Translations under genes and position numbers: made by a program | Shown: positions 7,143 to 21,713 of the stretch, piece after piece | Layout of the letters: every line of letters begins with the position of its first letter | How positions within the stretch are numbered: position 1 is the first letter of the stretch | Notes under the pieces: generated by a model | The model's input: only the letters and a program-made list of their open reading frames with translations | What the model was told of the DNA's origin: nothing | The model's database searches: none | IMG/VR virus record: IMGVR_UViG_2687453563_000005 | Source: a virus | Taxonomy: Duplodnaviria > Heunggongvirae > Uroviricota > Caudoviricetes | Length of the DNA stretch: 22,967 nt | Strand: one strand, 5' to 3'

Positions 7143-8069
7143 TCAGCGACCAATCACCACAACCTGACCACCGTCCCCTTCGTCTGCCGTGCTGATCTCC
7201 TGAGAAACCACGCGAGACCCCACGCGCATTTCCCCGTACAGAACAGGCAGAACATTGCCCTGGGCAACCATGTTATCCAGTGAGGAGAAATAGGTGTTCT
7301 GCTTACCGTTATCCGTTGTCTGTGTACGGGGAGTTCTGGCTTTCGGTGCCAGCATCTGCGCCACACCACCGAGCACCATACTGGCACCGAGAGAAAACAG
7401 GATGCCGGTCATACCACCGGTCCCAATGGCTGCCCCCCATGCTGCAAGGGTGGCTCCGGCGGTAAAGAATGATCCGGCAATGGCGGCAGCCCCCAGGACA
7501 ATCTGGAATACGCCACCTGACTTGGCCCCGGCGACTCTGGGAACAATATGAATCACAGCGCCATCAGGCAGAGTCTCATGTAACTGCGCCGTTAATATGT
7601 GCTGTTTGAGTTGACTTTCTTTTGCCGCATAGCCGTCACTTTTGCCGCGATATGGCCCCTGGTAATGTTCAGCAAACAGAACGCGTTCTGTTGCGGGAAA
7701 ATATGCGCGCAGACTTTCTTTATTACACCCGTTCCATCGTCCGGACGGCTTCGCCCAGATAATATGGTTAAGAACGTTGAAACGTTCACGCATCATGATC
7801 TCGATATCAGATGCGAGGCGATGTCCACAGAACAGGTAAAGGCTTCCGGCAGGTTTCAGCACCCGCCAGAACTGAGCCAGACAGTGGTCCAGCCACTTCA
7901 GGTAATCTTCGTCCCCTTTCCACTGATTGTCCCAGCCGTTGGGTTTCACCTTGAAGTACGGCGGATCGGTAACAATCAGGTCAATGGAATCATCAGGCAG
8001 GGACTGAATAAAATGCAGGCAATCAGCGTTGATTAAATCAACACTGTTTATTTTTACAGTATTTTTCAT
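7143..8069 (-). pseudogene. In-frame chimera: N-terminal fragment of a DNA N6A/N4C methyltransferase (~160 aa, DPPY motif) fused to C-terminal ~145 aa of lambda-like tail assembly protein I; junction near 7590
   Basis: N-part has IVTDPPYF and post-motif-IV region but no downstream FxGxG SAM motif; C-part TAQLHETLPDGAVIHIVPRVAGAKSGGVFQIVLGAAAIAG...VVVIGR matches lambda gpI C-terminus as recalled; lies immediately upstream of the J-like gene as I does in lambda. Confidence 0.65.
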
Positions 8070-8685: not shown

Positions 8686-10017
8686 ATGTTAGATACACTA
8701 TCTTTCACTGAACGTGACGAGTTCCAACGAAGAAACATCGCTGAAAATATCATCAAGTTGCTAAAACCAGAGGCAGACATTTCACCACTGGTAATAGACG
8801 GCGCATGGGGAACAGGGAAAACAGAATTTAGTATCAAACTGAAAAATCTCATTATTGAGCAAGAAACTGAATCTAAAGTTGTTTATATTGATGCCTTTAA
8901 AGGGGATCATGCAGAATCTCCATTACTTCTCATAACCTCTGCAATTGCCAGCATTTTGCCTGAGGAAGAAAAACAACACTTCATTAAGAGATCTCTTCCT
9001 GCAATTCGCTTTGGTTTAAAAACGGTACTAAAAGCTGGTGCAGGTTGGTTTTTACGACAGGAGGCTAGTGAAGTTGCCGAAGAATTCCAAGATGCGATGA
9101 AGAAAGCAAGCAATGCAGCAATAGATGGGACTATTGAAAATTTGCTTGAAGACCATATGGACTCAGAGAAAAACATAAATTCACTTAAATCCTGCATCGA
9201 AAGCATATCAAAAAATCAAAAAATCGTAATTATAATTGATGAATTAGACCGATGTAAGCCGAGTTTTTCAACAAATGTCATTGAAACAATAAAACACATT
9301 TTTGACATCAATAATGTCTTTTTTATTTTAGTTACAAACACAGAACAATTAAAAGCATCTATAAATCATATTTATGGTTATAGCATTAACTCACAAAAGT
9401 ATCTTGACAAGTTTATAAAATATACCATCACGCTTCCAGATACATGTTTGATAAATGGTCACAACGTATGTAAAGCCTCTGTTATATATTGGGATTACCT
9501 TGTAGAAAAAACAAGGTTATTGAATAAAATCAATAGATTATCAGGTTACTTTATCCGTGATTTAATTCAACGAACCAACTTATCATTACGTGAAACACAA
9601 ACATTTTCACGCAATCTTAACATTTTCCAACTGTTAAACGACGATGAGAACAAAAGCAGTGATCCTTTAATAAATATGATCTTTGTCGTAGCTGCCTTCA
9701 TACATTGCTTTGGTAACAAGGAAAAACTAAAACAAGAAATTACCGCTGAATCTATATCTTATTTAGCAGACCTGCTTAACATAAAAGAAATACCTTATTC
9801 TTATGAGAGAAGATCGCAAATCCCTGAAATATCGATTGTATTCTTCGGAATAATTAAAGACAGTATTACTCTTAATGAGCGATTTGCCCCTAAAAGTGAT
9901 GAAGAACTTAAAAAATTCACAAATGTTTATACTGATTATGAACACATAAATTTTTGGAGTACTACACCCAGAGAGTTATTGATAAAATATATTAATCAAA
10001 TGTCATTCATCCAGTAA
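8686..10017 (+). CDS. KAP-family P-loop NTPase (443 aa), AT-rich, apparently soluble
   Basis: Walker A GAWGTGKT near residue 40; Walker B-like VIIIDELDRC near residue 185; composition far more AT-rich than flanking phage genes; opposite strand to the Q operon. Confidence 0.8.
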   Translation: MLDTLSFTERDEFQRRNIAENIIKLLKPEADISPLVIDGAWGTGKTEFSIKLKNLIIEQETESKVVYIDAFKGDHAESPLLLITSAIASILPEEEKQHFIKRSLPAIRFGLKTVLKAGAGWFLRQEASEVAEEFQDAMKKASNAAIDGTIENLLEDHMDSEKNINSLKSCIESISKNQKIVIIIDELDRCKPSFSTNVIETIKHIFDINNVFFILVTNTEQLKASINHIYGYSINSQKYLDKFIKYTITLPDTCLINGHNVCKASVIYWDYLVEKTRLLNKINRLSGYFIRDLIQRTNLSLRETQTFSRNLNIFQLLNDDENKSSDPLINMIFVVAAFIHCFGNKEKLKQEITAESISYLADLLNIKEIPYSYERRSQIPEISIVFFGIIKDSITLNERFAPKSDEELKKFTNVYTDYEHINFWSTTPRELLIKYINQMSFIQ

Positions 10018-12644: not shown

Positions 12645-12967
12645 ACTTTCAGCCCCCTCTCATGTAACCAGTGGGCTGCACGCAGCCTTGCGTTTTCCTC
12701 ACCGGCAAGCAGTGAGCGGATAATCCCGACCGCCTCGCTGTCGTCGTCCTTCACCGCGGTATGAAGCGTGATCCCCCGGGCCACACCACGCTTTATCGTG
12801 ATGACGCCTTTTTTCTCCAGTGCGCGAAGATGCTCCACCGCTGCATTCACCGAACGGTATCCCAGCATGGTTGCCACCTCCTGATTGGTTGGCGGGAAGC
12901 CGCGTTCTTTCTGATAAGAAATCAGCATATCCAGCACCTGCTGCTGGCATTGAGTTAACGTCGTCAT
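12641..12967 (-). CDS. LexA N-terminal DNA-binding-domain homologue lacking the S24 peptidase domain (108 aa)
   Basis: MTTLTQCQQQVLDMLISYQKERGFPPTNQEVATMLGYRSVNAAVEHLRALEKKGVITIKRGVARGITL aligns along the LexA winged-helix domain; no Ser/Lys protease region follows. Confidence 0.7.
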   Translation of the reverse strand: MTTLTQCQQQVLDMLISYQKERGFPPTNQEVATMLGYRSVNAAVEHLRALEKKGVITIKRGVARGITLHTAVKDDDSEAVGIIRSLLAGEENARLRAAHWLHERGLKV

Positions 12968-13617
12968 GCCGCCATCTCCCTGACCAGTTTTTCTGCCTGC
13001 TGGCGAATCTGCGCCAGAAAGGCCTCACCACATGCCTCAAGTTCATCGCGCCCGATGTAGCTGATTGCCGGTCCCTTCCAGGTCTTGTCGAAAACAGCAA
13101 TAGCACCAGCGAAGAAAGCGCCTGTCGGCACCTGCTTCTCATCCTTCGGGATAAACCAGGCAGGCAGTTCAAAACCAATACGCCCGCGAATAAAAGCAAT
13201 ATGATCTACATCTTCCGGCCACCACACTTCGCTGGTGGCAGCTTTGATCAGGAAAACATAGCGCCCGCCTTTATCACGCATGGCACTGGCATGCTTCATG
13301 ATGTAACGCATGCCGGTGATGTATTGCCCCTCATGCTGACTGGCGCGGCTGTATGGGGGATTACCAAAGGCAGCACCTTTAAGCTCCGCAAGGCGTTCTG
13401 ACCAGTCATGCGCCAGCGCGTTGTCTTCCGCCGTGTAATACGCAGCACATTTGGCGTTATCACCGTCAGTGAACAGATCCAGAACAAACGGGCCAAACAG
13501 GGTGTTAATTCCCCAGAAAATGTTGTCCGGCGTGCGCCACTGATCGCCCACTTCCTTCAGTTCATGGGCTGGTTTGTTCCGCAGTTCCACCAGCGCCTGG
13601 CAATATTTATTACTCAT
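12964..13617 (-). CDS. Phage orphan DNA N6-adenine methyltransferase (Dam-like), ~217 aa
   Basis: FGNPPYS motif IV and overall phage Dam-family resemblance; start ATG at 13615..13617 overlaps upstream stop; no adjacent restriction gene. Confidence 0.8.
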   Translation of the reverse strand: MSNKYCQALVELRNKPAHELKEVGDQWRTPDNIFWGINTLFGPFVLDLFTDGDNAKCAAYYTAEDNALAHDWSERLAELKGAAFGNPPYSRASQHEGQYITGMRYIMKHASAMRDKGGRYVFLIKAATSEVWWPEDVDHIAFIRGRIGFELPAWFIPKDEKQVPTGAFFAGAIAVFDKTWKGPAISYIGRDELEACGEAFLAQIRQQAEKLVREMAA

Positions 13618-13907
13618 TAAGCCCCCACGTAATTCCCTGAGAGATACCACTCTTCACCTGATGCAGCCCGCTTACCCTGGCGACGCGCCTTACGCGTTAA
13701 CCAGCCTTCTGCTTCCAGCCGTGCGATAGCCGTTCTGACGGTACTCATCCCCGCGCCAATCTGACGGGCAATGGTTTCAATTGATGGCCAGCACACACCT
13801 TCGTCATTACTGAAATCAGCCAGGCGGGCCATAATTGCCACGCTGGATAACTTCATGCCTGATGCAGCGCAACCATCCCATACATAGCCGGTTAATTTAG
13901 TGCTCAT
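13617..13907 (-). CDS. Small winged-helix DNA-binding protein (96 aa), possibly replication- or regulation-related
   Basis: SIETIARQIGAGMSTVRTAIARLEAEGWL HTH-like segment; function not assignable from sequence alone. Confidence 0.5.
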   Translation of the reverse strand: MSTKLTGYVWDGCAASGMKLSSVAIMARLADFSNDEGVCWPSIETIARQIGAGMSTVRTAIARLEAEGWLTRKARRQGKRAASGEEWYLSGNYVGA

Positions 13908-15144: not shown

Positions 15145-15771
15145 ATGGAAACGGTTGGTCAGCGTATAAAAGCTCTGAGAAGAGTTACCAGAACGTCCCA
15201 GAAAGAATTGGGTAAATTTTGTGGAGTAAGCGACGTTGCTGTGGGGTACTGGGAGAAAGACATCAATACCCCTGGTGGGGAGGCACTTTCGAAATTAGCG
15301 AAGTTCTTCAATACGTCAATAGATTACATTCTTTATGGTGCTGAGTTTGAAGGCAAACTCGTCACAAACATGCGCAGAGTTCCTGTAATATCGTGGGTTC
15401 AGGCTGGGCAGTTTACTGAGTGCAGGGCAGCAGAAGTGTTTAGTGAAGTGGACAAGTGGGTAGATACATCATTAAAGGTTGGTGATAACTCATTTGCATT
15501 AGAGGTTAAAGGTGACTCCATGACTAACCCTAATGGCCTCCCAACAATACCAGAAGGCGCAACAGTGATTGTAGATCCAGATGCAGAACCTCGTCATGGA
15601 AAAATAGTCATCGCTCGACTTGATGGAACAAACGAAGCTACAGTAAAAAAATTAGTCATCGATGGCCCTCAAAAGTTTTTAGTACCATTAAATCCTCGGT
15701 ATCCCAACATCCCTATCAATGGTAATTGCCTTATCATTGGTGTAGTCAAAGGAGTTCAATACGAACTCTAA
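15145..15771 (+). CDS. CI-type prophage repressor: XRE HTH plus LexA-like S24 peptidase domain (208 aa)
   Basis: N-terminal HTH (IKALRRVTRTSQKELGKFCGVSDVAVGYWE) and C-terminal autocleavage domain with GDSM serine motif and downstream Lys (VKKLV). Confidence 0.9.
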   Translation: METVGQRIKALRRVTRTSQKELGKFCGVSDVAVGYWEKDINTPGGEALSKLAKFFNTSIDYILYGAEFEGKLVTNMRRVPVISWVQAGQFTECRAAEVFSEVDKWVDTSLKVGDNSFALEVKGDSMTNPNGLPTIPEGATVIVDPDAEPRHGKIVIARLDGTNEATVKKLVIDGPQKFLVPLNPRYPNIPINGNCLIIGVVKGVQYEL

Positions 15772-15934
15772 GGCCTCTCTTCTCTAACTAAGGCACCGAA
15801 CTAAGAAAAGTTTGGTGTTTTCTCTTGCCATGACAACTAAGTTAAGTTAGATTTTATATCAAAGATAACGAACAGGCAGGACGCCCACGAAGTAGCCGCC
15901 TGGGGCATATGAAGTCCAGGATGATTCGTTAGCA

Positions 15935-15960
15935 ACAAAAAAGCGCCCTACAGGACGCTT
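15935..15960 (-). terminator. Rho-independent terminator for the 16002..16523 gene
   Basis: Minus-strand RNA forms aagcgtcc/gggcgctt stem (one mismatch) with tgta loop followed by UUUUUUG. Confidence 0.45.
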
Positions 15961-16001
15961 AGCTCTTTAACAATCTGGGTATCATCCAACCAATGCAAGA
16001 T

Positions 16002-16523
16002 TTAAGGAATCCAAGGCGAATTCAGATCTCGCCCCAACTCACGTAATGATCTTGGTCGTTCGTACATCGGATTTTTTTCCATAAGAAATTTATTTTCACA
16101 GTGAAGGCAACGGCTTGTAAGAAAATGAGAAGTTTTACCTACTGGAAGCGGATGAAGTATCGATTTTATATTTTTGGAATAACAAAGTGGGCACAGATGC
16201 ACAGTTATTTCTTTTCCACTCACAATTTCATTTTTAGAGTAAACAAAAGCACCAGAGTCAAGCTGATCAAGGACATATCCTTCTACCTTGGCACAAAAAT
16301 CTTCAAACTCTGCAATTTTTGCTTTGAGATGCATCACCTCTTCATCACGAAGGCGGATCGCATCGCCAAGAGAGAAGCATTCTGCCTGAAGCGTGATTAG
16401 TTTGTTCTGGAGTTCAATGGTTGCAGCTTTAACTTCTGCATCCGTTTTCGCGTCATTAATAACCTTAGCAAGACCGGCAGTCTCCTTTATAGCGGCCATA
16501 GCCGCAGACAGTTCAGCTATCAC
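16002..16523 (-). CDS. Hypothetical protein (~165-173 aa): N-terminal coiled coil, C-terminal CxxC...CxxC zinc-ribbon-like motif; AT-rich moron beside cI
   Basis: Heptad-like N-terminus; CPLCYS...CLHCEN cysteine pairs; own terminator; composition differs from flanks; GTG at 16523 or ATG at 16499 as start. Confidence 0.5.
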   Translation of the reverse strand: MIAELSAAMAAIKETAGLAKVINDAKTDAEVKAATIELQNKLITLQAECFSLGDAIRLRDEEVMHLKAKIAEFEDFCAKVEGYVLDQLDSGAFVYSKNEIVSGKEITVHLCPLCYSKNIKSILHPLPVGKTSHFLTSRCLHCENKFLMEKNPMYERPRSLRELGRDLNSPWIP

Positions 16524-16855
16524 GTTGAATACTCAGCTAGTTGTTGGGGATATCCAGATTAACCAAATCCTTGTTGTTGGGGAATAACTAGGTCCACCTC
16601 GCCTGATGTGGCTAAAAGCAGGCACATAACAGCTAAGTATTTTCAACCAGAGAGAATCCTTAGCGTTGTGGTGAATGCGGCTCAGCGCACGCGGGTTAAG
16701 GTTGAGGCTGACAGTCGACCTTCTGTGGATACCCACCCGCCTGGTGTGCAACCTTCGCCAGGCACCGGGAGGCACCCGGCACCACAACTTTATGCTGTGT
16801 GTAGTCCTCGCGGTACCAGTTTGTACACTTGCTTCCGGCTGGTACCGCTCTTTTT

Positions 16856-16944
16856 ACAAAACAGAGAAGAACATCACCGGACGACGGGCTCATAACCCAA
16901 TCCATCCGGGCGGCTGCCACCGCAGGTGTTCTTCTCTGTTTTGT
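16856..16944. repeat. 18-bp perfect inverted repeat (acaaaacagagaagaaca / tgttcttctctgttttgt) enclosing ~53 bp; a second 9-bp inverted repeat (cggtaccag/ctggtaccg) lies just upstream at 16811..16848
   Basis: Read directly from the sequence; located about 50 nt upstream of the YfdP-like start. Confidence 0.6.
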
Positions 16945-16992
16945 GGAGAAACCAACCGACCTTGCAGGGTCGATATGATTAGGAGCAGAAAA

Positions 16993-17355
16993 ATGGCTAG
17001 CGAACGCAGTACTGATGTGCAGGCATTTATTGGGGAGCTGGACGGCGGCGTATTTGAAACCAAAATCGGCGCAGTTCTCAGTGAAGTCGCTTCCGGTGTG
17101 ATGAACACGAAAACCAAAGGTAAGGTCTCACTCAACCTGGAAATCGAACCATTTGATGAGAACCGTGTGAAAATCAAACACAAACTCTCATATGTTCGCC
17201 CGACTAACCGCGGGAAAATTTCCGAAGAAGACACCACCGAAACGCCGATGTATGTCAATCGCGGTGGTCGCCTGACTATTCTGCAGGAAGACCAGGGACA
17301 ATTACTGACTCTTGCCGGTGAACCTGACGGAAAACTCCGCGCAGCAGGTCATTAA
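16993..17355 (+). CDS. YfdP-like prophage protein (120 aa)
   Basis: AGGAG Shine-Dalgarno 7 nt upstream of ATG at 16993; the longer 16675 ORF-track start is rejected; family call from memory of the CPS-53 yfdP/yfdQ gene neighbourhood. Confidence 0.5.
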   Translation: MASERSTDVQAFIGELDGGVFETKIGAVLSEVASGVMNTKTKGKVSLNLEIEPFDENRVKIKHKLSYVRPTNRGKISEEDTTETPMYVNRGGRLTILQEDQGQLLTLAGEPDGKLRAAGH

Positions 17356-17420
17356 TATCGTTCTTAATTAACCGATTATTTATCTCATCACTGAATATCT
17401 TTATATAGTGAGGACTTATT

Positions 17421-18245
17421 ATGTCTCAGAACTTAGACGCAACCGCAATTAATCAAATCCATGCCCTTATTTCTGCTCAGGGTGTTAATGAAATTATCAG
17501 TAAGATTGGTGCCGATGCTGTGGCATTGCCTGAGAATTTCCGCATTCATGATCTGGAAAAATTTAATTTAAATCGCTTCCGTTTCCGTGGTGCGCTTTCC
17601 ACTGCCAGCATCGATGACTTTACCCGTTACTCTAAAGATCTTGCAGATGAAGGCACCCGCTGCTTTATCGATGCCGATAATATGCGAGCCGTCAGTGTGC
17701 TTAACCTGGGTACTATTGATGAACCAGGTCACGCAGATAACACCGCCACACTCAAACTGAAAAAGACAGCACCGTTCTCTGCTCTGTTGTCTATTAACGG
17801 CGAGCGTAACTCCCAGAAGTCACTAGCAGAATGGATTGAAGACTGGGCAGACTATCTTGTGGGCTTTGATGCTAATGGTGACGCTATTCAGGCAACAAAA
17901 GCGGCTGCGGCTGTCCGTAAAATCACGATTGAAGCAAACCAGACCGCTGATTTTGAAGATAATGACTTCAGCGGCAAACGCTCCCTGATGGAGTCTGTCG
18001 AAGCGAAGACCAAAGATATTATGCCTGTGGCATTTGAATTTAAATGCGTTCCGTTTGAAGGCCTGAAAGAACGTCCGTTTAAATTACGCCTCAGCATTAT
18101 CACTGGCGATCGTCCTGTACTGGTTCTGCGCATTATTCAGCTGGAAGCAGTGCAGGAAGAAATGGCTAACGAATTTCGTGATCTGCTTGTTGAGAAATTC
18201 AAGGACAGCAAAGTAGAAACCTTTATTGGTACTTTCACCGCCTGA
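17421..18245 (+). CDS. YfdQ-like protein (DUF2303 family, 274 aa)
   Basis: Length and sequence character consistent with the CPS-53 YfdQ family as recalled; GAGGA Shine-Dalgarno upstream. Confidence 0.65.
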
Positions 18246-18257
18246 TTTCATTACTGC

Positions 18258-18279
18258 AAATGCCCCTGCGGGGGCATTT
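18258..18279 (+). terminator. Hairpin (aaatgcccc-tgcg-ggggcattt) after the yfdQ-like gene; possible partial terminator
   Basis: 9-bp perfect stem with 4-nt loop; only a short T-run follows. Confidence 0.35.
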
Positions 18280-18372
18280 ATGGAAACGTAATTGACTCAA
18301 TAATCGCCGGATGGTGAGGGCTTCCTTTTACCAGAATTCAGCGCGGTGCAGCGCATATACGTGGAGAACAAA

Positions 18373-18909
18373 ATGTCATTTATTAAAACTTTTTCCGGGA
18401 AGCATTTTTATTATGACAGGATAAATAAAGACGACATCGTTATTAACGATATCGCGGTTTCTCTTTCAAATATCTGTCGCTTTGCAGGGCATCTTTCACA
18501 TTTCTACAGCGTTGCCCAACATGCGGTGCTTTGCAGCCAACTGGTACCGCAGGAATTTGCTTTTGAAGCGTTAATGCATGATGCAACAGAAGCGTATTGC
18601 CAGGACATCCCGGCGCCACTGAAACGCCTTCTTCCTGACTATAAACGGATGGAAGAAAAAATAGATGCAGTAATCCGTGAGAAATACGAGTTGCCCCCGG
18701 TTATGAGCACGCCCGTGAAATATGCCGATCTCATCATGCTGGCAACCGAACGCCGTGATCTCGGGCTTGATGATGGCTCTTTATGGCCTGTACTGGAAGG
18801 TATCCCGGCAACAGAGATGTTCAAAGTTATTCCACTGGCACCGGGCCATGCCTACGGGATGTTTATGGAACGCTTCAACGAGTTATCGGAATTACGCAAA
18901 TGTGCATAA
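18373..18909 (+). CDS. HD-domain phosphohydrolase (YfbR/YfdR-like 5'-deoxynucleotidase family), ~178 aa
   Basis: H...HD...D pattern (FAGHLSHFYSVAQHAV...ALMHDATEAY...D); GGAG Shine-Dalgarno before ATG at 18373. Confidence 0.7.
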   Translation: MSFIKTFSGKHFYYDRINKDDIVINDIAVSLSNICRFAGHLSHFYSVAQHAVLCSQLVPQEFAFEALMHDATEAYCQDIPAPLKRLLPDYKRMEEKIDAVIREKYELPPVMSTPVKYADLIMLATERRDLGLDDGSLWPVLEGIPATEMFKVIPLAPGHAYGMFMERFNELSELRKCA

Positions 18910-19778
18910 CTCATGTAGTTAGTTTTTCTGGCGGGAGAACATCCGCATATCTTGTTCACCTGATGGAAGAACAAAGAAAGGCTGGCAATAACGTCTGCTA
19001 CATCTTTATGGATACCGGTTGCGAACATCCGCTGACATACCGCTTTATCCGGGAGGTTGTGAAGTTCTGGGACATACCACTAACTGTGTTACAGGTCGAT
19101 ATAAATCCTGAGCTTGGGCAGCCAAATGGTTATACAGAATGGGAGCCAAAGGATATTCAGACACGAATGCCGGTGCTTAAACCGTTTATGGACATGGTTA
19201 AAAAGTACGGCACGCCATACATCGGCGGCGCGCTCTGTACTGATAGGCTAAAACTCATCCCTTTCACAAAATACTGCGATAACCATTTCGGGCGAGGTAA
19301 TTACATCACATGGCTGGGTATTCGTGCAGACGAACCCCGTAGGCTGAAACCGAAATCGGGCGTCCGGTATCTTGCCGAGCTGTCAGATTTTGATAAGTCG
19401 GATGTTATCCGGTGGTGGCGAAAACAACCTTTTGATTTGCAAATCCCGGAGCATCTCGGGAACTGTGTTTTCTGCATCAAAAAGTCAACGCAAAAGCTGG
19501 GGCTTGCATGTAAAGACGAACCAGGTCTGATGCGAGTTTTTAATGAGCTGGTTACAGGCAAACACGTCAGGGATGGTCATCGCAGAACAGGTAAAGACAT
19601 TATGTACCGTGGTCACCTGACGCTTGACGGAATTGCCAGAATGTCTGCCAACAGCGACTACAGAAATTTGTATCAGGCGATGGTACAGGCCAGGCGATTC
19701 GATACCGGCTCGTGTTCAGAGTCATGTGAAATCTGGGGTGATCAATTGGAATTGGAATTCAAAGAGGTAGGGGTATGA
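18900..19778 (+). CDS. PAPS-reductase-like PP-loop ATP pyrophosphatase family protein, ~292 aa
   Basis: PP-loop motif VVSFSGGRTSAY near N-terminus; ATG at 18900 overlaps the HD gene stop (ATGTGCATAA), indicating translational coupling. Confidence 0.75.
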   Translation: MCITHVVSFSGGRTSAYLVHLMEEQRKAGNNVCYIFMDTGCEHPLTYRFIREVVKFWDIPLTVLQVDINPELGQPNGYTEWEPKDIQTRMPVLKPFMDMVKKYGTPYIGGALCTDRLKLIPFTKYCDNHFGRGNYITWLGIRADEPRRLKPKSGVRYLAELSDFDKSDVIRWWRKQPFDLQIPEHLGNCVFCIKKSTQKLGLACKDEPGLMRVFNELVTGKHVRDGHRRTGKDIMYRGHLTLDGIARMSANSDYRNLYQAMVQARRFDTGSCSESCEIWGDQLELEFKEVGV

Positions 19779-20119
19779 CAACCGAAATTAACTACCATGC
19801 ACTGCTTGAGCGCGCACGGAATAAAGTGCAGAGCATTGAGTTCGCCTTAACACAGAGTGCATTCGCTGAGATTCGCGCTGAGCTTGAAAATGATTTAGAA
19901 CTGGCACGGATTGCACTGGCATCTCTGGAAGTTGAGCCAGATGAACGCGCAGCCTATGAATTATTTATGGAAAAGCGTTTCGGTAAAACAGTCGATCGTC
20001 GGAGAGCAAAAAACGGCGATAACGAATACATGGCATGGGATATGACTCTCGGTTGGATCGTCTGGCAGCAACGAGCTGGTATCCATTTTTCAACAATGTC
20101 ACAGCAAGAGGTGAAATAA
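19775..20119 (+). CDS. Hypothetical phage protein (114 aa)
   Basis: ATGA overlap with the upstream gene and TAATG overlap with xis; no motif recognised. Confidence 0.5.
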   Translation: MTTEINYHALLERARNKVQSIEFALTQSAFAEIRAELENDLELARIALASLEVEPDERAAYELFMEKRFGKTVDRRRAKNGDNEYMAWDMTLGWIVWQQRAGIHFSTMSQQEVK

Positions 20120-20469
20120 TGGAGCCATACAGCCTCACACTCGATGAGGCCTGTCATTTTCTCAAGATATCCAGACCGACTGCCATTAACTGGATACGCA
20201 CAGGGCGTCTTCAGGCAACACGCAAAGATCCCACTAAGAATAAATCTCCTTACCTCACAACACGACAAGCCTGCATTGCGGCTCTTCAGTCTCCGCTGCA
20301 TACTGTCCAGGTGAGCGCGGGTGATGGCATAACAGAGGAAAGAAAATGTCACTCTTCCGCAGAGGTGAAATATGGTACGCCAGTTTCACATTGCCGAACG
20401 GTAAAAGATTTAAACAGTCTCTTGGAACAAAGGACAAAAGGCAGGCGACAGAACTCCATGACAAGCTAA
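20119..20469 (+). CDS. xis: Excisionase (AlpA/Xis-family HTH), ~116 aa
   Basis: [34 protein letters not shown]; resembles P22 Xis as recalled; 3' end overlaps int in another frame. Confidence 0.75.
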
Positions 20470-21509
20470 AGGCTGAAGCATGGCGGGTCAGCAAACTTGG
20501 TGAAATACCTGATATAACGTTCGAGGAAGCGTGTGTCAGGTGGCTTGAAGAGAAAGCACATAAAAAATCACTGGACGATGACAAAAGCCGGATCGGATTC
20601 TGGCTTCAACATTTCGCAGGAATGCAACTAAGAGACATTACTGAATCAAAAATTTATTCAGCAATGCAGAAAATGACGAACCGGCGTCATGAGGAAAACT
20701 GGAAACTCAGGGCAGAAGCATGCAGAAAAAAAGGGAAACCTGTTCCAGAATACACGCCAAAACCAGCGTCCGTTGCAACGAAGGCTACGCATCTTTCATT
20801 TATAAAGGCCCTACTAAGAGCCGCAGAGCGTGAATGGAAAATGCTGGATAAGGCACCAATTATTAAAGTGCCTCAACCAAAGAATAAACGGATCCGCTGG
20901 CTGGAGCCCCATGAAGCACAAAGGCTGATTGATGAATGTCCGGAGCCATTAAAGTCTGTTGTTGAATTTGCACTGGCAACAGGCTTAAGACGCTCGAACA
21001 TCATCAACCTTGAATGGCAACAAATAGATATGCAGCGCCGGGTGGCATGGATAAACCCAGAAGAGAGTAAATCAAACCGCGCAATCGGCGTTGCGCTGAA
21101 TGATACTGCATGTCGCGTTTTGAAAAAACAAATCGGGAATCATCACCGTTGGGTATTTGTGTACAAGGAAAGCTGTACCAAACCAGACGGAACGAAAGCG
21201 CCAACAGTAAGGAAGATGCGGTATGACGCAAACACAGCCTGGAAAGCGGCGCTGAGACGGGCTGGTATTGATGATTTCAGATTTCACGACTTGAGACACA
21301 CCTGGGCAAGTTGGCTGGTTCAAGCCGGAGTCCCGTTGTCAGTGTTACAGGAAATGGGAGGCTGGGAGTCTATCGAAATGGTTCGTCGATATGCTCACCT
21401 TGCACCTAATCACCTTACCGAACACGCACGGCAAATAGACTCGATCCTGAACCCATCGGTCCCAAATTTGTCCCAGTCAAAAAATAAGGAAGGTACTAAT
21501 GATGTGTAA
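20346..21509 (+). CDS. int: Tyrosine integrase, P22-Int-like (387 aa)
   Basis: N-terminus [48 protein letters not shown] and catalytic HDLRHTWAS...RRYAHL motifs; GAGGAA Shine-Dalgarno; next to thrW, the P22 attachment site. Confidence 0.9.
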
Positions 21510-21523
21510 CTTATTGATTTAAA

Positions 21524-21569
21524 TGGTGCCGATAATAGGAGTCGAACCTACGACCTTCGCATTACGAAT
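21524..21569. other. Probable att core overlapping the 3' portion of thrW; extent approximate
   Basis: Integrase 3' end lies 15 bp from the tRNA 3' end; P22-type att cores overlap the tRNA 3' part by about 46 bp; partner copy not found in the window. Confidence 0.4.
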
Positions 21570-21599
21570 GCGCTGCTCTACCAACTGAGCTATATCGGC
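21524..21599 (-). tRNA. thrW: tRNA-Thr (anticodon CGT), thrW
   Basis: Reverse complement gccgatatagctcagttggtagagcagcgcattcgtaatgcgaaggtcgtaggttcgactcctattatcggcacca folds as a 76-nt cloverleaf with CGT anticodon and CCA end. Confidence 0.9.
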
Positions 21600-21713
21600 C
21601 CTGAAAGGACATGTTCACGAACGTGAATCACGGTGGACAAGGTTAAAACTAACCGGGCGATGCGTCAATGGCCTTGTGAATCAAATGGCTACTTTTGCAT
21701 CACCCGGTTTTAT

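Follow-up and report, generated by a model that had tools for sequence, protein, structure and literature searches.

The HD-domain protein YfdR of Escherichia coli K-12 (b2361), encoded in CPS-53 (KpLE1), is a weak 5'-deoxynucleotidase whose affinities for nucleotides are much below those of YfbR. YfdR also binds domain I of DnaA via Phe46 and competes there with DiaA and DnaB (Noguchi & Katayama 2016, PMC4776307). Multicopy yfdQRS or yfdQRT inhibits initiation at oriC, and deletion of yfdQRST from K-12 gives no replication phenotype (PMC4776307). The NinC protein of phage lambda was still listed as uncharacterised in a paper of 2024. Relatives of both proteins are encoded side by side in the DNA described here, a 22,967-nucleotide (nt) stretch of a Caudoviricetes virus (IMG/VR record IMGVR_UViG_2687453563_000005; hereafter the window). 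In this stretch, an HD-domain gene is followed, in an overlapping frame, by a PP-loop gene annotated as "PAPS reductase family". Both genes are already known: the first is yfdR and the second is an orthologue of lambda ninC. A first-pass annotation, made from the letters of the DNA, had assigned the two folds correctly but had recognised neither gene, and it proposed that the two products act together on nucleotides or DNA.

The locus resembles each of the two described systems in part. Window YfdR is identical to K-12 YfdR at 173 of 178 residues (97%) in a gap-free alignment, the order yfdP-yfdQ-yfdR is the same, and the stop/start overlap at the end of yfdR has the same geometry. The slot after yfdR is occupied by yfdS (DUF551) in K-12, whereas the window carries the ninC-like gene there. 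The yfdT-like protein encoded next is 83% identical to K-12 YfdT over its C-terminal 81 residues but has a different N-terminus, which points to a right-hand mosaic breakpoint. The integrase and its site also differ, being P22-type at thrW in the window and IntS at argW in K-12. Over 285/290 residues, the PP-loop protein shares 79% identity with lambda NinC (NP_040635.1, annotated as "PAPS reductase"), with all motifs kept, and like lambda ninC its gene overlaps both neighbours. Lambda ninC lies between ninB and ninD in the early-right nin region, whereas the window gene is flanked by yfdR and the yfdT-like gene in the early-left "ea" region.

The adjacency of the two genes probably reflects a module junction within one shallow lineage rather than a dedicated enzyme pair. 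Among 5426 complete E. coli genomes, to which all counts of E. coli genomes refer, yfdR is present in 2947 and is followed by yfdS in 2273. A ninC-like gene is present in 422, and the adjacent pair of yfdR and a ninC-like gene in 280. After yfdR, yfdS is about eight times commoner than a ninC-like gene. On the NinC side, genomes and viral contigs were scanned with a family alignment, and neighbours were called and clustered in 154 non-redundant contexts; relatives with less than 90% identity to the window protein were counted as distant. YfdR is encoded directly upstream in 42 of the 154, with an overlap of 10 nt, and all of these have a NinC identity of 93-100%. Other upstream genes encode an unknown protein of 147 amino acids (12/154, in Shiga toxin (Stx) phages), NinB (12/154, 4-nt overlap), phage Dam (7/154, 4-nt overlap), SSB (6/154) and NinG (6/154, 4-nt overlap). 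At the 109 NinC loci below 90% identity, an HD gene directly upstream was found in none, and a YfdR-like gene anywhere in the flanks was found by tblastn at one of 123 loci in this identity range. The adjacent pair is in no sequenced phage record. YfdR-like proteins are encoded in 330 phage records, including those of Bacillus, Caulobacter, Rhizobium and other phages, and NinC-family proteins in 585 records, 341 of them from Vibrio phages; the host ranges of the two families among sequenced phages are different.

On the yfdR side, no relative below 97% identity came out of the IMG/VR scan, which is thus uninformative on distant yfdR. Homologues of 66-70% identity were seen in two contexts, and the PAPS gene is in neither. 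Citrobacter prophages keep the YfdP-DUF2303-YfdR trio, with small unknown genes after yfdR, and small unknown genes also lie downstream of a divergent yfdR in Enterobacter. Lack of joint conservation across related prophages had been named beforehand as the outcome that would tell against the pair, and this is what was found, adjacency being limited to NinC identities of at least 93%. The claim that the overlap marks a functional pair of HD and PP-loop enzymes is not supported, given the count of none in 109 distant loci and the excess of yfdS after yfdR.

In E. coli isolate 2-101 (NZ_CP053785.1; locus L327, 14849-16723), yfdR is split by ISVsa5, an IS4-like insertion sequence, and the ninC-like gene is intact in an otherwise identical prophage. 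In Stx phages (phage PA2, L002 3554-5881; L068-L083), a ninC-like gene of 92-93% amino acid identity comes after genes for a YfdP-like protein, a DUF2303 protein and a 147-amino-acid protein without a Pfam match. A gene of 67 codons follows the ninC-like gene at these loci, again with an ATGA overlap. Low-coverage contigs of about 48.4 kb in assemblies of unrelated taxa, among them Pseudomonas, Oceanobacillus, Shewanella and Bradyrhizobium (L084, L086, L089-L091 and L093, among others), carry ninB-ninC identical to lambda. Apparently, these public assemblies are contaminated with lambda DNA.

The overlap of the two genes is as first described. They share 10 nt in different frames: within ATGTGCATAA at 18900-18909, the ATG of the second gene lies inside the K-C-A codons of yfdR, and the TAA stop of yfdR ends at 18909. 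Homologues begin 2-5 residues ahead of VVSFSGGRTS, and the ATG at 18900 is the sole start in agreement with this; the RefSeq start is identical. K-12 carries ATGCGCATGA at the same place, and there the ATG starts yfdS, which is unrelated to the PP-loop protein. In 80 IMG/VR yfdR loci, the gene that begins at the embedded ATG is of the YfdS type in 71 and NinC-like in 7, and the frame is short or disrupted in 2. The ATG in the last codons of yfdR is a conserved module-swap junction that starts whichever cassette sits downstream. NinC-family genes, for their part, overlap the upstream gene in 80 of 136 same-strand non-redundant contexts regardless of which gene this is; the lambda ninB/ninC and ninC/ninD overlaps are 4 nt each. 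In the early operons of lambdoid phages, a stop/start overlap is the mark of a module junction and a weak guide to functional partnership. Ahead of 18900 there is only a weak Shine-Dalgarno sequence (GGA about 10 nt upstream), which makes termination-reinitiation, and with it translational coupling of yfdR and the ninC-like gene, plausible. The co-expression that had been read from the overlap is reasonable, as co-transcription and probable translational coupling.

The identity of the HD-domain protein is clear from several sources. It matches PHROG 318, "deoxyribonucleoside 5' monophosphate phosphatase", at E 2.4e-108, and is named "yfdR: 5'-deoxynucleotidase" by RefSeq in identical genomes. 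Its Pfam scores are just under the cut-offs (YfbR-like, 24.8 bits against 25.9; HD_3, 17 against 22.5). Among solved structures, the HD protein Atu1052 (2gz4; E 8.7e-12) comes closest. The HD dyad, H69-D70, is encoded at 18577-18582, and H40, H69, D70 and downstream Asp residues are invariant in 12 YfdR homologues down to 66% identity. From its 97% identity to the K-12 protein, window YfdR is expected to be an HD 5'-deoxynucleotidase and a DnaA-binding protein, and the window keeps yfdQ, yfdR and a yfdT-like gene. The pair had been said to sit where lambda has recombination and host-takeover genes. The position is right, and the published function of YfdR, DnaA binding and inhibition of initiation, is of the host-takeover type, but no recombination genes are left. 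A role of YfdR as eraser of m6-dAMP, the alarm nucleotide of PUA-Cal-HAD defence, was considered and dropped as pure speculation; a preprint reports no nucleotidase counter-defence.

The PP-loop protein belongs to the NinC family by its matches to PHROG 424 (E 4.6e-89) and PHROG 33262 (E 1.3e-89). Pfam PAPS_reduct (PF01507) is matched at 35.5 bits against a cut-off of 22.5, over residues 5-71 only. Over 18 homologues of 51-79% identity, the motifs SxSGGRxS, DTGxEH, RxDExxR, GNCxFC and CSESCE are invariant, and all are present in the window protein. The six invariant cysteines of the family are C113, C126 and those of the CxxC and CxExC motifs, the last of which is on a flexible C-terminal tail. 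The PP-loop itself is retained in 130 of 132 NinC homologues from the fetched loci. An AlphaFold2 model of the protein has a pLDDT of 83 and a pTM of 0.82, with low confidence in the C-terminal tail that bears the CSESCE cysteines. Among solved folds, PAPS and APS reductases come nearest, followed by TilS, the [4Fe-4S] tRNA thiolases NcsA and TtuA, and LarE. When the PDB was searched with the family profile, the alignment was confined to the N-terminal ~100 residues, which is short of mapping [4Fe-4S] ligands. Profile assignment had been suggested as a check with three candidates in mind. PAPS_reduct is matched over the residues given above and the DndC model is unmatched by the window protein, while no similarity to QueC beyond the common PP-loop fold was found and this candidate was rejected.

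Relatives of the PP-loop protein are also found in defence systems. In the DNA phosphorothioation systems Ssp, Dnd and BREX type 4, the PP-loop ATP pyrophosphatase is SspD, DndC and BrxP, respectively. These enzymes have a canonical PP-loop and conserved cysteines in common with the window protein, whose gene in contrast is phage-borne and stands alone. The window protein matches SspD at E 2.9e-14 (profile positions 2-125 of 277) and BrxP at E 3.9e-4. In a PADLOC search with 18 NinC-family members, SspD was matched by 18 of 18 (best E 2.5e-17), BrxP by 17 and DndC by 5.

A link to DNA adenine methylation recurs in the family. Of 94 non-redundant contexts with less than 90% identity, 16 have Dam next to a NinC-type gene or fused to it, and the homologues P0079, P0090 and P0099 are such fusions with phage Dam. 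The first of these, P0079, corresponds to p0018 of Vibrio phage 44E38.1, a PAPS-Dam protein 55% identical to the window protein over 96% of the latter. The two share the PP-loop, CxxC and the CSESCE tail; the window protein stops after this tail at 292 amino acids, and the C-terminal Dam domain (PF05869) is absent. When p0018 and p0019 were moved into a sensitive phage, it escaped host Dnd (Piel et al. 2022; preprint 10.1101/2021.05.05.442762). A survey of 2026 places PAPS-reductase genes in Aca-regulated anti-defence hot spots. In the prophage of the window, Dam is a separate, unfused gene on the opposite strand, 5.3 kb from the ninC-like gene. This separately encoded Dam is a possible partner of the ninC-like enzyme.

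What the PP-loop protein does can be weighed against two other roles known for its fold. As a true, CysH-like PAPS reductase, it would be an auxiliary metabolic gene for sulfate assimilation. The Pfam and PHROG names suggest this, as do the PAPS and APS reductases among the nearest solved folds, and virome papers treat phage "PAPS reductase" as an auxiliary metabolic gene. The defining features of CysH are the ECGLH cysteine motif and a degenerate, non-ATP PP-loop. CysH carries SSSFG at the aligned position, whereas the window protein has a canonical SGGRTS; its tail reads GSCSESCEIW, with CSESCE in place of ECGLH. Its C-terminal half differs from that of the CysH/APS reductases (PDB 1sur, 6vpu, 2goy; TM-score 0.33-0.47), and it scores 20.4 bits against the cut-off of 154 of the NCBIfam CysH equivalog (NF002537), with PF01507 covering little of its length. 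Furthermore, Dam adjacency or fusion recurs in the family, the gene is placed among nin/ea genes of DNA transactions, and E. coli already has cysH. A role in sulfate assimilation is thus very improbable. A NinC-like enzyme could also act on RNA, by tRNA thiolation or lysidine-type modification that would protect or retune tRNAs, and the fold neighbours fit such a role. We consider it quite unlikely, since no tRNA-binding domain of the THUMP, PUA or TilS C-terminal type was detected in the Pfam scan, the profile affinities are to SspD, BrxP and DndC, the fusion partner is a DNA adenine methylase, and the Vibrio phenotype concerns DNA restriction. With the CysH hallmarks missing, a canonical SGGxxS and relatives in defence systems, the ninC-like product is most likely an adenylating enzyme, possibly sulfur-transferring, in DNA modification or anti-restriction rather than in sulfur assimilation. 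The first-pass idea of a DNA modification or anti-restriction function matches the best evidence for the PP-loop protein, namely the SspD, BrxP and DndC matches and the Vibrio homologue, as a predicted role.

For the pair as a whole, the original proposal was a coupled two-step pathway of nucleotide or DNA modification by an HD phosphohydrolase and a PP-loop enzyme. Both folds act on nucleotides, the exact pair occurs in many IMG/VR prophages as well as in the E. coli genomes counted above, and the 10-nt overlap with its weak Shine-Dalgarno sequence implies that the second gene probably needs translation of the first. However, adjacency does not reach beyond the clade with NinC identities of at least 93%, yfdS uses the same ATG far more often, and the ninC-like gene follows an unrelated 147-amino-acid protein in Stx phages and NinB in lambda. 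In isolate 2-101 the ninC-like gene remains intact beside a broken yfdR, and NinC overlaps any neighbour. A dedicated pathway is therefore rather improbable. At the other extreme, both genes could be inert cargo of a decaying prophage with no current function in this host, which we regard as unlikely. The prophage is defective, with a scar open reading frame (ORF; see below), IS1 and a frameshifted neighbour; no promoter-like site lies directly upstream, yfdQRST can be deleted from K-12 without a replication phenotype, and lambda ninC is non-essential. Against this, many genomes carry the two ORFs intact and with 100% identity, none of the invariant catalytic residues has been lost, and the CPS-53 yfd genes influence the stress tolerance of K-12.

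In the explanation that we prefer, a defective lambdoid prophage at thrW carries two accessory genes that are independent of each other; they would be co-transcribed from the early-left side and meet at an ordinary recombination junction. The yfdR gene is the last of a conserved yfdP-yfdQ(DUF2303)-yfdR cassette, and its product, with YfdQ and YfdS or YfdT, would inhibit initiation at oriC if overexpressed. The slot downstream commonly holds yfdS (DUF551, Ea22-like) and here holds the lambda ninC orthologue. The product of the latter belongs to the PAPS-reductase/DndC/SspD branch of the PP-loop fold, with the canonical SGGxxS, R-x-D-E-x-x-R and six cysteines. It would adenylate a nucleic-acid substrate with ATP and then transfer sulfur or another nucleophile via a cysteine persulfide or an Fe-S site. 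Phage DNA modified in this way would blunt modification-dependent restriction such as Dnd or Ssp. We infer both this chemistry and the anti-restriction role from the family relationships.

Several points weigh against this explanation. The 280 genomes with the exact pair also have the 10-nt overlap conserved, so the two genes are indeed co-expressed, and on comparative data a cooperation limited to this lineage is possible. Proteins of the NinC family have no reported biochemical activity, and lambda ninC is a nin-region gene of no assigned function that is dispensable for plaque formation in the laboratory. The match of the window protein to SspD is confined to the N-terminal half of the profile, and neither annotation nor searches gave partner genes of the SspA/B/C, DndA/D/E or BREX type in the window or in identical genomes. 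The anti-Dnd insert consisted of two genes, and the tested protein is fused to a Dam domain that the window protein lacks (preprint 10.1101/2021.05.05.442762). Finally, the prophage is defective, and both genes may rarely or never be expressed in this host.

A wider reading can be put forward tentatively, and we hold it to be doubtful. In lambdoid and Vibrio phages, the NinC "PAPS reductases" would be stand-alone sulfur transferases, dependent on ATP and with a cysteine or Fe-S site, that mark phage DNA and confer immunity to phosphorothioate-dependent restriction systems such as Dnd, Ssp and BREX type 4. They would use host IscS and perhaps, for targeting, phage Dam, and the mark would be phosphorothioate-like or a thio-base. 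Co-translated YfdR could add a second early activity of benefit to the phage in this lineage, such as hydrolysis of deoxynucleoside monophosphates or blockade of DnaA. If this is true, a class that is routinely scored in viromes as a sulfur auxiliary metabolic gene would be an anti-defence DNA-modification enzyme. The sulfur-assimilation label of the 585-record lambda NinC family is probably wrong in any case, and a role in DNA modification or anti-restriction would fit better. For the locus itself there is little new: RefSeq annotates both genes, E. coli genomes carry them by the hundreds or thousands, and their families have been described.

The setting of the pair is a defective lambdoid prophage at a tRNA-Thr gene (thrW), beside proA (Table 1). 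The region of both genes is 100% identical to many E. coli chromosomes, and no single complete genome in the collection covers at least 80% of the window in one place. On the plus strand, the order is S24-type repressor, yfdP, yfdQ, yfdR, PP-loop gene, yfdT-like gene, excisionase-like helix-turn-helix (HTH) gene and integrase. The minus strand carries the early-right genes (CII-like, phage Dam methylase, RusA, KilA-N and DUF968), gpJ and, as the mark of a deletion, a methylase/tail-I chimera. Since the pair lies on the repressor strand, downstream of the repressor and upstream of xis and int, the earlier label of an early-left operon is a fair one.

Table 1. Positions of the gene pair, its motifs and neighbouring features in the window.
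Feature	Position	Strand	Basis or remark
Phage-type Dam methyltransferase, early-right block	12964-13650	-	Pfam PF05869, E 1.3e-45
S24/LexA-type repressor gene	15145-15771	+	Same strand as the gene pair, upstream of it
yfdP, first gene of the conserved yfdP-yfdQ-yfdR cassette	16993-17355	+	RefSeq YfdP in identical genomes
yfdQ (DUF2303)	17421-18245	+	Pfam DUF2303, E 2e-92; PHROG 210
yfdR, HD-domain gene, 178 amino acids	18373-18909	+	97% identity to K-12 YfdR; PHROG 318; RefSeq name
ninC-like gene, PP-loop ATP-pyrophosphatase fold, 292 amino acids	18900-19778	+	Annotated "PAPS reductase family"
PP-loop SFSGGRTS	18921-18944	+	
C189xxC192	19464-19475	+	
C272-S-E-S-C276	19713-19727	+	
yfdT-like gene	19775-20119	+	PHROG 660; overlaps the ninC-like stop by ATGA
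Excisionase-like HTH gene	20035-20469	+	Pfam HTH_17; RefSeq annotation
Tyrosine integrase, beside the thrW attachment site	20346-21509	+	Pfam Phage_integrase, E 3e-48
tRNA-Thr	21524-21599		

A promoter and terminator scan of 15500-21700 was uninformative, as it gave fewer promoter-like sites than shuffled sequence, with none directly upstream of yfdR. A GC-rich hairpin at about 18262-18278, in the gap between yfdQ and yfdR, falls short of terminator criteria. The Rfam scan gave no match inside yfdR or the ninC-like gene.

The remaining observations concern other parts of the prophage. The chimeric ORF at 7143-8069 (minus strand) combines an N-terminal N6_N4 DNA methylase segment with the C-terminal end of the lambda tail assembly protein I, and it looks like the scar of the deletion that made the prophage defective. 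IS1 and a frameshifted neighbour lie near the prophage genes. Between the nin-like and tail genes, a KAP-family P-loop NTPase (PF07693, E 9e-71) is encoded in the opposite orientation at 8686-10017 (plus strand), as a candidate moron or defence gene. An ORF of 173 codons at 16002-16523 (minus strand), antisense to the early-left direction, encodes two CxxC pairs and is annotated as hypothetical by RefSeq. Just upstream of yfdP, where the repressor gene and the yfd cassette leave a gap, Rfam matches the small RNA STnc100 at 16635-16857 (plus strand), with 49.1 bits against a gathering threshold of 47.

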